Source: Escherichia coli (GTDB lineage Bacteria > Pseudomonadota > Gammaproteobacteria > Enterobacterales > Enterobacteriaceae). Taken from it: DNA of 64,000 bases. Shown in pieces: positions 21,845-44,008 of the stretch; position 1 is the first letter of the stretch, and every line of letters begins with the position of its first letter. The stretch is from NCBI RefSeq assembly GCF_024700885.2, contig NZ_CP117016.1. One strand, written 5' to 3'. Under the pieces are notes generated by a model. That model was not told where the DNA came from. It did not search any database and saw nothing but the letters and a program-made list of their open reading frames with translations. The position numbers were made by a program, and so were the translations under genes.

Positions 21845-22444
21845 ATGAAACAGAGCCATTTTTTTGCCCATCTCTCCCGTCTGAAACTCATTAACCGCTG
21901 GCCGCTGATGCGCAACGTGCGGACTGAAAATGTGTCCGAACACAGTTTGCAGGTAGCGATGGTCGCCCATGCGCTGGCAGCTATCAAAAATCGGAAATTT
22001 GGCGGTAATGTCAACGCCGAACGTATCGCTTTACTGGCGATGTACCACGATGCCTCAGAAGTGCTTACCGGCGATCTCCCTACCCCGGTGAAATACTTCA
22101 ATTCGCAAATCGCTCAGGAATACAAGGCTATTGAAAAAATCGCTCAGCAAAAACTGGTCGATATGGTTCCGGAAGAGCTGCAGGATATTTTTGCGCCGTT
22201 AATTGACGAGCATGCATATAGCGATGAAGAAAAATCGCTGGTGAAACAGGCAGATGCACTGTGTGCATATCTGAAATGTCTGGAAGAACTCGCGGCGGGA
22301 AATAATGAATTCTTGCTGGCAAAAACGCGACTGGAAGCGACGCTTGAAGCGCGCCGCAGCCAGGAGATGGACTACTTCATGGAAGTCTTTGTTCCCAGCT
22401 TCCATCTTTCGCTCGATGAGATTAGCCAGGATTCACCGCTGTAA
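21845..22444 (+). CDS. yfbR: HD-domain 5'-deoxynucleotidase
   Basis: 199-aa ORF with HD motif (MYHDASE); matches YfbR. Confidence 0.92.
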
Positions 22445-22454
22445 GCAGCCGGAG

Positions 22455-22497
22455 TCTGCGTCGCATCAGGCAATAAGCGCCGGATGCGACATCAGGC
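22455..22497. repeat. REP / palindromic unit between yfbR and yfbS
   Basis: ctgcgtcgcatcaggc...gccggatgcgacatcaggc. Confidence 0.5.
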
Positions 22498-22502
22498 TCT
22501 TG

Positions 22503-24335
22503 TCAAAACGGAAACAGCATCGGGATCATCACCACACAAACCGCCATCACGATAATGGTGAACGGTACCCCCAACTTCACAAAGTCACTGAAGCTGTAAT
22601 TTCCCGGGCCTAAAACCAGTGTGTTTACCGGTGAAGAAACCGGTGTCATAAAGGCGGCGGATGCTGCCATCGCCACGACCATCGCAAATGGATAAGGCGA
22701 CACACCCATCGTTTTGGCAGCAGCCAGCGCAATCGGAGCCATCAACACCGCCGTTGCGGTATTAGAGATAAATAGCCCAATAACCGCCGACAAGACAAAC
22801 AAACAACCCAGCATCATATGTGGCCCGTAACCGCCGCCAATGTCCATCAGCCCTTTCACCGCCAGCGCGACACCTCCCGTTTTCTGTAATGCCACAGCAA
22901 ACGGCATCATCCCAACGATCAAAATAATGCTCGGCCAGTGAATGGATTTATAGGCGCTTTCAGCATCGATACAGCGGAATTTCCCCATCAGCAGGCAGGC
23001 GATGATAGCGGCAACAGGATTAGGGATTTCATCGGTCAGCATTAACGCCACCATTAGCACCAGACAGAAAATCGCATGGGGTGCCTGGCTGTGCGCGGGC
23101 GATGCTTCACTCACCTCTTCCGGTAAGTTCAGCGCAACGAAGTCGCGGCCCTGTTTGGCCAGCATACCGATCAGTTTCCAGTTACCCACAACCAGGATGA
23201 TATCGCCCAGCAGCAGAGGCTCATCCGCCAGCGAACCTTCCAGCGCCACGCCATTGCGCTTTAGCCCCACCACATTCAGTCCGTAGCGGGTACGAAAACC
23301 AATTTCGCGCACCGATTTACCAATCAGTTCTGACTCAGGAATTAATGAAATCTCTGCCATGCCCACATCAAGGGCCTGGTCAGAAAAATACTCGCCGCGC
23401 AGTACCATCGGCTCCAGCAATTGCTCACTACAAAATTGCCGGAGATCGACATCAGCCGCAGACATATCAATAAGCAAAACGTCACGCGCGCGAAATTCAG
23501 AAACCCCATTAACGTTCACGATAACGCGACGAAAACGCCGCCAGCGTTCTACACCGATGACGTTAGCGCCATAACGCTCACGTAATTTGAGATCGTCCAG
23601 CCGTTGACCAATCATTGGCGAACCGGGGCGAATAGCCAGACGACGCGCACGCCCGGTCAGTCGATATTCACGGATAAGATCGCGAAAGGTTCGACGCGTC
23701 CAGCCTTCGCGCTGTGGGGTCTGGGTATCCCCTTTCAGCATGAAACGCATCACTAACATATACAAAATACCCAGCACCAGCACGACCAGGCCAATAGGTG
23801 TTACGCTAAAGAAACTAAAACCATGATAGCCTTCACGCAGCAATTCACTGTTGACTACCAGGTTCGGCGGCGTCGCCACCAGCGTCATCATGCCGCTAAT
23901 CAGCCCGGCAAAACTTAACGGCATCATCAGGCGCGACGGCGACGTTTGCATACGCATGGCAACGCTTAACACCACGGGAATAAAGATAGCGACAACGCCG
24001 GTTGAACTCATAAACGCGCCAAGCCCCGCGACGGTCAGCATCAACAAAACCAACATTTTGATTTCACTGTTGCCCGCCACTTTGACCAGCCATGTCCCCA
24101 TTACAGTGGCAACACCGGTACGGACCAAACCATCGCCAATAATGAACAAGGCGGCAATCAGGACAACGTTAGGATCGGAAAAGCCGGAAAATACTTCGGG
24201 GACCGTCAGCGTTCCGCTTAATGCAAACGCGACAATAACAAACAAAGCGACCGCATCCATACGCACTCTGCCCGTCGCAAACAAGACGATGGCAACGGCC
24301 AGTAATGAAAGAACCCAAATCAATTCACCGTTCAC
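22503..24335 (-). CDS. yfbS: Putative anion transporter with a central cytoplasmic regulatory (TrkA-C-like) region
   Basis: 610-aa ORF; hydrophobic N- and C-terminal halves flank a hydrophilic central region; matches YfbS. Confidence 0.9.
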
Positions 24336-24380
24336 AACTTATCCTTGTTAATTGAGGGGGATGACTTGATTCTGCCATAA

Positions 24381-24410
24381 AAAAGCCCCGACGAGACGGG
24401 GCTAAATCAT
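24381..24410 (-). terminator. Rho-independent terminator downstream of yfbT
   Basis: Hairpin gccccg-acgaga-cggggc with adjacent A-run on the plus strand (T-run on the minus strand). Confidence 0.5.
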
Positions 24411-24421
24411 GATCAGGTGTT

Positions 24422-25072
24422 TCACTGAATAATAACATCGCCATTTGGCTGTTTGGTCACAGTAATTTGCTCCAGACTGTGGAGGACCAAATCGACCTCA
24501 TTCAGGCGCGGGGTATCTGCCGGAGCGTTAACCGCAATGACATGACAACCCGCCGCCAGGCCTGAAAGCACGCCAGCGGGAGCATCTTCCACCACCACAC
24601 ACTCCTGCGGCGCAAGCCCCAGCAGCTGCGCACCTAACAGATACGCATCAGGTTCTGGTTTTCCGCGCTTCACTCGCTCAGCGGTTACAAACACCTCTGG
24701 TGCGGGAAGCCCAGCTATTTTATGGCGCGCTCGCGCTACCGGCATGGAGCCAGAAGTCACAATGGCCCACGGAATACCTGCTTTATTCAAATGATTGAGT
24801 AAGGCGATTGCCCCCGGAAGCGCGGTAATACCTTCGGTTTCCGTGGCCTCGATGTGCTCCAGACGCGTAAACTCGGCGGCAATATCAGCCTCGGATTTGC
24901 CCGCCATAAAATGGCGCAGAGAGGTGATCGCCTGTTTACCGTGAATGAAAGCCAGCACCTCTTCCGGCGCTAACCCATGACGTCTGGCCCAGTTGCTCCA
25001 CGCCCGCTCTACCGCAGGCAGGGAATCCACCAGCGTTCCATCAAGATCAAACAGAAAACCTTTGCACCGCAC
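24422..25072 (-). CDS. yfbT: HAD-superfamily sugar phosphatase
   Basis: 216-aa ORF with the N-terminal DxDG HAD motif (FDLDGTLVDS); matches YfbT/HxpA. Confidence 0.92.
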   Translation of the reverse strand: MRCKGFLFDLDGTLVDSLPAVERAWSNWARRHGLAPEEVLAFIHGKQAITSLRHFMAGKSEADIAAEFTRLEHIEATETEGITALPGAIALLNHLNKAGIPWAIVTSGSMPVARARHKIAGLPAPEVFVTAERVKRGKPEPDAYLLGAQLLGLAPQECVVVEDAPAGVLSGLAAGCHVIAVNAPADTPRLNEVDLVLHSLEQITVTKQPNGDVIIQ

Positions 25073-25082
25073 GCGGACCTCC

Positions 25083-25658
<576 letters not shown>

Positions 25659-26114
25659 TTACAAATCATCAAGGAAAGTTTTATCCAGTTGTTTGAAGGC
25701 GCGCTTAAGCGTGTCAGCTAATGCCTGGTAATCAGGCTTGCCTTCAACGGGTGCCAACACCTGTCCAGACTCCTGCAATTTACCGCGAACTTCATAAAAC
25801 CAGTTAAGGATTGCAGGGGGTAATGGCGTTACAGAACGTTTGCCCAGCCACCACAATCCCTGCATGGGTAAACTTAAAGCGAACAGCGCAGTGGCAACTG
25901 CCGGCCCAAGCTGACCGCCCAGGGCAATCTGCCAGCAGAGAGTAAATACGGCGATCGGCGGCATAAAACGGATCGCATAACGCGTCATCTTGATAACGCG
26001 ATTTTCGACAAAGACCGGGGCAAGGCGTTTTTCCAGCGGCCACGTCTTTGAGTAATGCTGTCCCCGGCGAAACAAGCTAAAAAAATTAACAGAACGATTA
26101 TCCGGCGTTGACAT
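25659..26114 (-). CDS. yfbV: UPF0208 inner-membrane protein YfbV
   Basis: 151-aa ORF with two hydrophobic segments. Confidence 0.9.
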
Positions 26115-26451
26115 GCTTCACCTCAACTTCACATATAAAGATTCAAAAATTTGTGCAAATTCACAACTCAGCGGGACAACGTTCAAAACATTTTGTCTTC
26201 CATACCCACTATCAGGTATCCTTTAGCAGCCTGAAGGCCTAAGTAGTACATATTCATTGAGTCGTCAAATTCATATACATTATGCCATTGGCTGAAAATT
26301 ACGCAAAATGGCATAGACTCAAGATATTTCTTCCATCATGCAAAAAAAATTTGCAGTGCATGATGTTAATCATAAATGTCGGTGTCATCATGCGCTACGC
26401 TCTATGGCTCCCTGACGTTTTTTTAGCCACGTATCAATTATAGGTACTTCC

Positions 26452-27654
26452 ATGTCGAGTAAGTTAGTACTGGTTCTGAACTGCGGTAGTTCTTCACTGA
26501 AATTTGCCATCATCGATGCAGTAAATGGTGAAGAGTACCTTTCTGGTTTAGCCGAATGTTTCCACCTGCCCGAAGCACGTATCAAATGGAAAATGGACGG
26601 CAATAAACAGGAAGCGGCTTTAGGTGCAGGCGCCGCTCACAGCGAAGCGCTCAACTTTATCGTTAATACTATTCTGGCACAAAAACCAGAACTGTCTGCG
26701 CAGCTGACTGCTATCGGTCACCGTATCGTACACGGCGGCGAAAAGTATACCAGCTCCGTAGTGATCGATGAGTCTGTTATTCAGGGTATCAAAGATGCAG
26801 CTTCTTTTGCACCGCTGCACAACCCGGCTCACCTGATCGGTATCGAAGAAGCTCTGAAATCTTTCCCACAGCTGAAAGACAAAAACGTTGCTGTATTTGA
26901 CACCGCGTTCCACCAGACTATGCCGGAAGAGTCTTACCTCTACGCCCTGCCGTACAACCTGTACAAAGAGCACGGCATCCGTCGTTACGGCGCGCACGGC
27001 ACCAGCCACTTCTATGTAACCCAGGAAGCGGCAAAAATGCTGAACAAACCGGTAGAAGAACTGAACATCATCACCTGCCACCTGGGCAACGGTGGTTCCG
27101 TTTCTGCTATCCGCAACGGTAAATGCGTTGACACCTCTATGGGCCTGACCCCGCTGGAAGGTCTGGTCATGGGTACCCGTTCTGGTGATATCGATCCGGC
27201 GATCATCTTCCACCTGCACGACACCCTGGGCATGAGCGTTGACGCAATCAACAAACTGCTGACCAAAGAGTCTGGCCTGCTGGGTCTGACCGAAGTGACC
27301 AGCGACTGCCGCTATGTTGAAGACAACTACGCGACGAAAGAAGACGCGAAGCGCGCAATGGACGTTTACTGCCACCGCCTGGCGAAATACATCGGTGCCT
27401 ACACTGCGCTGATGGATGGTCGTCTGGACGCTGTTGTATTCACCGGTGGTATCGGTGAAAATGCCGCGATGGTTCGTGAACTGTCTCTGGGCAAACTGGG
27501 CGTGCTGGGCTTTGAAGTTGATCATGAACGCAACCTGGCTGCACGTTTCGGCAAATCTGGTTTCATCAACAAAGAAGGTACCCGTCCTGCGGTGGTTATC
27601 CCAACCAACGAAGAACTGGTTATCGCGCAAGACGCGAGCCGCCTGACTGCCTGA
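26452..27654 (+). CDS. ackA: Acetate kinase
   Basis: 400-aa ORF; matches AckA; followed by pta. Confidence 0.96.
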
Positions 27655-43920: not shown

Positions 43921-44008
43921 GTGTCGGATGCGGCGTAAACGCCTTATCCGACCTACGGCTCTACCCCTGCGCAGGCCTGATAAGACGCGCCAGCGTCGCA
44001 TCAGGCAA
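43921..44008. repeat. BIME with two REP palindromic units between cvpA and dedD
   Basis: gtgtcggatgcggcgtaaacgccttatccgacctac and gcctgataagacgcgccagcgtcgcatcaggc. Confidence 0.6.

Follow-up and report, generated by a model that had tools for sequence, protein, structure and literature searches.

The yfbS gene and its locus

The window analyzed here, a stretch of 64,000 nucleotides from an Escherichia coli genome (assembly GCF_024700885.2, contig NZ_CP117016.1), contains an open reading frame for a 610-aa protein on the minus strand at positions 22503-24335, with a GTG start at 24335 and a stop codon at 22503-22505. In RefSeq these positions are annotated as yfbS, coding for an 'SLC13 family permease', and the two proteins are 100% identical. 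Upstream of yfbS and on the same strand lie yfbV, yfbU, and hxpA; yfbR and alaA are convergent, and ackA-pta is located farther out. The start codon is preceded by a ribosome-binding site that is kept as CAAGGA in enterobacterial orthologous loci, and an Rfam scan of positions 22300-26500 gave no match above noise. Of the 5426 complete E. coli genomes, 5425 have a yfbS match, in each case as one chromosomal copy, and yfbS is a core gene of this species that codes for an uncharacterized membrane protein of the anion-transporter type. The features of the gene, in window positions, are:

22503..24335, minus strand: yfbS coding sequence, 610 aa plus stop, GTG start (open reading frame and RefSeq identity)
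24342..24346, minus strand: Shine-Dalgarno sequence AAGGA, 6 nt before the GTG (read from the sequence)

Two membrane halves form the inverted repeats of an anion-carrier scaffold

A first-pass annotation made from the sequence had described YfbS as an anion-transporter scaffold of two hydrophobic, multi-helix halves with about 200 hydrophilic residues between them, and both parts of this description are borne out. The GRAVY values (Kyte-Doolittle) are +1.22 for aa 1-205, -0.21 for aa 206-420, and +1.27 for aa 421-610; the central stretch is about 215 aa long, and 28% of its residues are D, E, K, or R. Over its whole length YfbS matches the CitMHS profile (PF03600) with 326.5 bits (E 2.3e-97), well above the gathering cut-off of 31.9 bits, and the profile is split round the insert, its positions 1-181 aligning with aa 16-196 and its positions 200-322 with aa 421-547. 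The Na_sulph_symp profile (PF00939) also matches the whole protein, with 74.9 bits (E 8.8e-21; gathering cut-off 27 bits), and matches the C-terminal half alone with E 5.8e-13. When the halves were scanned apart against CitMHS, the N-terminal half matched with E 1.3e-45 and the C-terminal half with E 2.7e-38. Because the halves and the TrkA_C domains of the insert (described below) all match when scanned separately, the layout of two halves and an insert is, as judged by sequence, not a chance pattern. The two halves are also homologous to each other (26% identity, blastp E 3e-6), and sequence matches of YfbS include VcINDY (8e-21), SLC13A5, SLC13A1, and Pho90. The TIGR00785 model for sodium-coupled anion symporters matches YfbS with 144.1 bits (E 5.1e-42), which is below its curated cut-off of 198.6 bits. 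The membrane halves and the helices predicted in them are as follows:

23721..24335, minus strand: N-terminal membrane half, aa 1-205, inverted repeat 1 (CitMHS, GRAVY, AlphaFold2 pLDDT about 90-98)
Predicted helices of repeat 1, in residues: 3-21, 26-40, 55-87, hairpin 91-106/111-128, broken helix 133-147/156-167, 179-196 (AlphaFold2)
22506..23075, minus strand: C-terminal membrane half, aa 421-610, inverted repeat 2 (CitMHS, Na_sulph_symp, VcINDY alignment, AlphaFold2)
Predicted helices of repeat 2, in residues: 415-434, 439-452, 467-503, hairpin 505-520/525-543, broken helix 547-559/569-578, 582-607 (AlphaFold2)

The helices were read from an AlphaFold2 model of the YfbS monomer, built from 98 relatives with 32-54% identity, that reaches a pLDDT of 91.2 and a pTM of 0.86 and in which only residues 207-209 are unreliable. 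In the model each half is built of five helices plus a hairpin, in one and the same order: a pair of helices comes first, then a long broken helix and the hairpin, and after these another broken helix and the closing helix. The DASS/IT elevator fold is characterized by a repeat that occurs twice in inverted orientation and contains a broken helix and a re-entrant hairpin, and the model has these features in both halves. A Foldseek search of the PDB with this model matched VcINDY (E 4e-13), NaS1, NaCT, NaDC3, INDY, LaINDY, Pho90, the plant DiT, and ArsB, with E values from 4e-13 to 4e-8 overall and of about 1e-12 to 1e-13 for VcINDY, NaS1, and NaCT. The target TM-scores are 0.55-0.76 for VcINDY, NaS1, NaCT, NaDC3, and INDY, and the matches to LaINDY, Pho90, DiT, and ArsB are weaker.

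The predicted transport site

Four short motifs at the hairpin tips and in the unwound helices of YfbS correspond to the substrate/cation site of DASS carriers: SST at residues 110-112, SNT at 524-526, TPPN at 155-158, and SPVN at 568-571. Their places in the window are:

24000..24008, minus strand: predicted tip of hairpin 1, S110-S111-T112, counterpart of the DASS 'SNT' substrate/cation motif (helix break 91-106/111-128 in the model)
23862..23873, minus strand: T155-P-P-N158, predicted unwound part of the repeat-1 broken helix (helix break 148-155 in the model)
22758..22766, minus strand: predicted tip of hairpin 2, S524-N525-T526, an 'SNT' motif (alignment to both VcINDY SNT motifs)
22614..22664, minus strand: aa 558-574, match to the sodium:sulfate symporter signature, including S568-P-V-N571 of the repeat-2 unwound helix (regular expression)

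In HMMER alignments the region of aa 524-526 pairs with both of the Ser-Asn-Thr regions of VcINDY, and hairpin 1 corresponds to this YfbS region by way of the internal repeat. The columns of the hairpin-tip and unwound-helix motifs belong to the best conserved ones in the family, as represented by the 98 relatives with 32-54% identity to YfbS. The family frequencies among these relatives are S 82, S 65 (N 27), and T 82 at the hairpin-1 tip and S 88, N 92, and T 78 at the hairpin-2 tip, and N158 is invariant. Residues 558-574 fit the sodium:sulfate symporter pattern PS01271 of PROSITE in the form [STACP]-S-x(2)-F-x(2)-P-[LIVM]-[GSA]-x(3)-N-x-[LIVM]-V. In Pho90, the position of N525 in hairpin 2 is occupied by a His (PMC13381914), and because YfbS keeps the Asn, Pho90-like phosphate binding is less likely for it.

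With the DASS/SLC13 carriers of solved structure (VcINDY, human NaS1, NaCT, NaDC1/3, Drosophila INDY, and LaINDY), YfbS shares the fold, the inverted repeats, the hairpins, a Ser-Asn-Thr tip in hairpin 2, and unwound helices of the Pro-Pro-Asn type, and the elevator movement and the dimer of these carriers are presumed for it. It differs from them in its far better score with CitMHS, in its TIGR00785 score (144 versus the 198.6 bits of the cut-off), and in the SST of hairpin 1; VcINDY has, moreover, an N-terminal helix that is extra relative to YfbS, and the linker between the DASS/SLC13 repeats is without RCK_C domains, unlike that of YfbS. We consider YfbS best filed as a CitMHS/SLC13-like permease of the IT superfamily and as a homologue of DASS that falls outside the strict DASS family, because it misses the TIGR00785 cut-off and has SST at hairpin 1. 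With SST in place of SNT and a TIGR00785 score below the cut-off, Na+ coupling of the DASS type can therefore not be assumed for YfbS.

A tandem pair of RCK_C domains links the repeats

The first-pass annotation had placed one probable TrkA-C-like domain in the hydrophilic middle of YfbS. The TrkA-C identity stands, both in Pfam and in the predicted RCK_C fold, but the insert (aa 206-420, about 215 hydrophilic residues) holds two such domains in tandem and not a single one. A domain search finding none in the central region would have refuted the annotation, and the Pfam scan gave the opposite: with the insert halves scanned alone, PF02080 (TrkA_C) matches twice, with 40.6 bits (E 2.5e-10) at aa 233-298 and with 48.1 bits (E 1.1e-12) at aa 326-394, both above the gathering cut-off of 27 bits. 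The two domains, which are homologous to each other (E 6e-7), are located at:

23403..23648, minus strand: TrkA_C/RCK_C domain 1, aa 230-311, Pfam 233-298 (PF02080, beta-rich model, Foldseek)
23124..23402, minus strand: TrkA_C/RCK_C domain 2, aa 312-404, Pfam 326-394 (PF02080, sequence match to KtrC 6i8v, conservation)

In the full YfbS model, the insert forms a beta-rich module (aa 230-403) between the repeats. Modelled alone, it reaches a pLDDT of 88.9 and a pTM of 0.82, and the predicted fold matches solved RCK_C domains, with Foldseek finding the RCK_C lobes of GsuK, MthK, KtrA/KtrC, KhtT, and BusR. Domain 2 is better conserved than domain 1, the conserved residues being E328, P333, S335, G339, R360, G377, D378, L381, and G384. 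An Arg-rich stretch opens the insert. The linker that joins the repeats of YfbS is, in short, expanded into a tandem TrkA_C (RCK_C) pair.

ArsB (10tp) and Pho90 (8r33-35) resemble YfbS as predicted in their 5+5 inverted repeats, their cytoplasmic linker, and their hairpin-loop substrate sites. Pho90 is regulated through an N-terminal SPX domain, whereas the insert of YfbS lies between the repeats, and in ArsB, where both termini are periplasmic, the cytoplasmic inter-repeat linker of the 5+5 topology is just 23 residues long, as against about 215 aa for the YfbS insert (PMC13381914). The YfbS insert replaces exactly this ArsB-type linker and begins Arg-rich, and a cytoplasmic location is thus a well-founded expectation, drawn from the topologies of ArsB and AspT and from the Arg-rich flank. 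In AspT, too, the repeats are connected through a soluble domain on the cytoplasmic side, which consists of the sub-domains S-1 and S-2 (PMC12462496).

AspT and the aspartate:alanine exchanger (AAE) family have the plan predicted for YfbS, with two inverted membrane repeats that have hairpins and a cytoplasmic linker of two sub-domains (PMC12462496), and the YfbS insert superposes as a tandem on the AspT soluble domain (9oqy) over 182 aligned columns. The AspT membrane domain, however, belongs to another transporter family, with a whole-protein TM-score of about 0.19-0.21 against YfbS, and the AspT/AAE substrates are amino or organic acids. The same domain pair appears to have been inserted independently in the two cases. 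The AAE family includes the E. coli proteins YidE and YbjL.

The RCK_C domains of KtrA/KtrC, MthK, GsuK, KhtT, and BusR have the same fold and belong to the same Pfam family as the YfbS insert. In those systems they are the lobes that bind ligand, and they control K+ channels, K+ transporters, and, in BusR, a repressor; they occur as separate subunits or C-terminal appendages, usually after an RCK_N Rossmann lobe, whereas YfbS has no RCK_N and carries two RCK_C domains in tandem inside the transporter polypeptide. From these roles of RCK_C elsewhere we infer that the YfbS insert may be regulatory. c-di-AMP, the best documented RCK_C ligand, is unlikely to act on YfbS, because c-di-AMP production is not known from E. 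coli.

Distribution, gene neighborhoods, and algal relatives

When 1.84 billion representatives were searched exhaustively with phmmer, 15,891 clusters matched at E <= 1e-3, of which 2,495 reached E <= 1e-30, and the best 150 matches align end to end over about 600 aa as a rule. CitMHS and TrkA_C are both present in 64/64 of the diverse YfbS relatives scanned, and one bacterial branch of the family, with proteins of about 785 aa, has four TrkA_C domains. Gene neighborhoods were compared at 80 loci from one genome-contig scan, which are distributed among Proteobacteria, Bacteroidota, Verrucomicrobiota, Planctomycetota, Actinomycetota, Bacillota, Chloroflexota, and Gemmatimonadota. All-against-all clustering of the flanking open reading frames at these 80 loci identified lineage-specific neighbors only. 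At the 70 non-enterobacterial loci, a Pfam census of the nearest flanking open reading frames found no family in more than 3/63 or more than 2/60, and no sulfur, phosphate, or carboxylate pathway partner recurs beside the YfbS homologues. By its behavior yfbS is a stand-alone unit, and its gene context does not reveal the substrate.

The HAD phosphatase gene hxpA adjoins yfbS in Enterobacterales only, and we dropped a pairing of phosphatase and phosphate carrier (hxpA/yfbS) as a candidate because the adjacency is confined to that order.

The architecture of YfbS is already known: the gene, its scaffold, and its TrkA_C domains are covered by RefSeq and by the Pfam annotation of every orthologue, and the same design has been discussed for the algal SAC1 and SLT proteins. 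SAC1 has an SLC13-like membrane domain, the sodium:sulfate symporter signature named in the same report, and an intracellular loop with two TrkA-C domains, of which the SLTs have three to four (PMC8780407). SLT1-3 are reported to be Na+/sulfate transporters, SAC1 is a putative sulfur sensor, and bacterial homologues exist, although the role of TrkA-C in SAC1 and the SLTs 'is not completely understood' (PMC8780407; PMC3355512). YfbS shares with these proteins of Chlamydomonas and other algae the two-part SLC13-like membrane domain, the signature, and the TrkA-C loop; its two TrkA-C domains are as in SAC1, and the four of the ~785-aa bacterial branch are within the SLT range. This relationship rests on published descriptions and shared Pfam architecture, and SLT1-3 differ in that sulfate transport is reported for them, whereas YfbS is known here from its sequence and a model. 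The layout is common to thousands of bacterial and algal proteins.

A putative anion carrier, possibly controlled by its own linker

The reading that we favor, and hold to be reasonably probable, is that YfbS is an inner-membrane secondary anion transporter of the IT superfamily (CitMHS/DASS-like) in which the cytoplasmic RCK_C pair controls transport. YfbS would function as a dimer, by an elevator mechanism, and would carry a small anion, probably a divalent one, along with Na+ or H+. Our leading guess for the substrate would be sulfate or a similar oxyanion, because of the relationship to SAC1 and the SLTs, the signature at aa 558-574, and the hairpin-2 Asn, which is as in NaS1 and is not the His of Pho90; a di- or tricarboxylate would come second. 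Such guesses draw on distant homology, and with this one scaffold the various DASS/IT relatives transport carboxylates, sulfate, phosphate, or arsenite. On the cytoplasmic face, the two RCK_C domains are predicted to pack together as an intramolecular pseudo-dimer and may bind a cytoplasmic ligand. Short tethers at aa 206-229 and 405-420 would link the pair to the two adjoining helices, the last one of repeat 1 and the first one of repeat 2, and through these tethers the pair could restrain or release the elevator movement, such that transport would track the internal state of the cell.

Transport could also run outward, with YfbS acting as an exporter or exchanger (by anion efflux, or by anion:anion or H+ antiport) that the RCK_C pair opens when a cytoplasmic anion or signal is high, an alternative that we doubt but regard as a serious contender. 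E. coli already has dedicated uptake systems for sulfate, phosphate, and dicarboxylates, which speaks for an exporter, as do the missing Asn of a canonical SNT at hairpin 1 and the TIGR00785 score below the cut-off. Moreover, the structural matches include ArsB, in which the same fold serves for H+ antiport and efflux, as well as LaINDY, DiT, and AspT, in which it supports exchange (PMC13381914). However, the direction of transport is not readable from the YfbS sequence, and the C-terminal sodium:sulfate symporter signature is intact.

Alternatively, the tandem TrkA_C domains might be structural, serving without ligand control as a cytoplasmic dimerization or stabilizing module that holds the scaffold domains or the repeats, which we think unlikely. 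AspT, the only solved transporter of the same layout, counts toward this alternative and against a regulatory one: its soluble domain is described as part of the dimer contact, where it contributes an interface between protomers, and the excerpts of the AspT report that were searched mention neither a ligand nor a regulatory role. The insert is also less conserved than the membrane halves, with a mean information per column of 1.55 bits in TrkA_C-1 and 1.83 bits in TrkA_C-2 as against 2.5 bits in the halves, and no ligand can be named for the RCK_C pair of YfbS. A purely structural module is harder to reconcile with domain 2, where G339, R360, G377, D378, L381, and G384 are nearly invariant and include the Gly/Asp turn typical of RCK_C, and with the matched RCK structures, which were deposited with ligands (Ca2+ in MthK, NAD in GsuK, ATP/ADP in KtrA/KtrC, and c-di-AMP in KhtT and BusR). 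A branch of the family has, in addition, doubled the pair to four TrkA_C domains, which a mere tether would hardly need.

We consider it very unlikely that YfbS is mainly a sensor, a 'transceptor' like SAC1 of Chlamydomonas, with the RCK_C pair as its output or interaction module. SAC1 does provide a precedent, with its two TrkA-C domains, its sodium:sulfate signature, and closest relatives that are bacterial, but its sensor role is itself termed putative (PMC8780407; PMC3355512). No kinase or regulator gene is conserved beside the yfbS homologues, and all of the transport-site motifs are intact and conserved in YfbS, both of which argue against a sensor. Transport of K+, which the TrkA domain name suggests, TrkA_C being best known from K+ systems (among them the matched KtrA/C, MthK, GsuK, and KhtT), and which fits a 'cation transmembrane transporter activity' annotation repeated for YfbS in PMC8605246, is rejected because the scaffold contradicts it: the membrane part resembles neither TrkH/KtrB nor K+ channel pores, all of its sequence and fold matches are anion or metalloid carriers of the IT superfamily, and TrkA_C also occurs in carriers of substrates other than K+, such as AspT.

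Returning to the anion carrier under RCK_C control, we suggest tentatively, and as a bolder proposal, that the YfbS type might be the first elevator DASS-like anion carrier to be gated allosterically by a built-in RCK_C pair, with a cytoplasmic metabolite or ion other than c-di-AMP as the ligand. If so, E. coli would have a path for sulfate or some other divalent anion that is under feedback control and that genetics has missed through redundancy. The family comprises about 16,000 clusters (at 50% identity), its studied members are algal only, and with the ligand and substrate in hand, thousands of genes could be annotated at once. A targeted experiment on YfbS is now easy to design, given a confident model, conserved residues at the site, and AspT as a precedent. 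The sequence observation itself adds nothing new; its value is as a reminder of a transporter that is universally conserved in E. coli and belongs to a very large, multi-phylum family.

YfbS in published expression data

The first-pass annotation had left the substrate unassigned, and the literature agrees: in the papers searched we found no transport, binding, or phenotype study of YfbS (b2292), which is mentioned in expression tables only. In Dickeya and Pectobacterium, yfbS is up under O2 limitation and is labelled a 'sulfate transporter' without evidence. In other tables yfbS is down in the intracellular communities of UPEC and under lignocellulose inhibitors, and it is 2.7-fold up in a table of the Psp regulon.

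Transcription of yfbS

Directly 3′ of the hxpA stop, and ~49 nt upstream of the yfbS start, lies a strong hairpin resembling an intrinsic terminator, the stem of which is kept through compensatory changes at the E. albertii, Enterobacter, and Erwinia loci.

24384-24403, minus strand: intrinsic-terminator-like hairpin, AGCCCCGTCTCGTCGGGGC then TTTTTTAT

Because there is no sigma-70-like site between this hairpin (24384-24403) and the yfbS start codon, transcription of yfbS seems either to depend on read-through or to arise from a promoter within hxpA. The gap on the other side of yfbS carries a palindromic element.

22458-22490: REP-type palindrome between the convergent yfbS and yfbR genes, GTCGCATCAGGC / GCCGGATGCGAC

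A 14-mer of this palindrome, GCCTGATGCGACGC, has further copies within the window at 43993 and 63624; the chance expectation for the 14-mer in the window is 0.03 matches.

The yfbU start codon

Upstream, the mechanically called yfbU open reading frame abuts the yfbV stop.

25083-25658, minus strand: mechanical yfbU ORF, 191 aa, TTG start at 25658
25659-26114, minus strand: yfbV

The RefSeq yfbU is shorter (495 nt, 164 aa), and this shorter annotated start is probably the correct one.

Variation in the YfbS family

One branch of the YfbS family has four TrkA_C domains, not two, flanked by the same membrane halves, an arrangement paralleled by that reported for the algal SAC1-like SLT transporters (PMC8780407).

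P0171, P0180, and P0236: YfbS relatives with four TrkA_C domains, about 785-813 aa
L004, 1245-3605: locus of the four-TrkA_C branch

Within E. coli, 5425 genomes were compared, and since only 101 of them carry yfbS alleles ≥99% identical to that of the window (the remaining 5324 are 95-99% identical), the window belongs to a lineage of the species that has been sequenced less often. Among the strains whose yfbS matches exactly are the canine strain 1190 and strain SW4848 from lake water.
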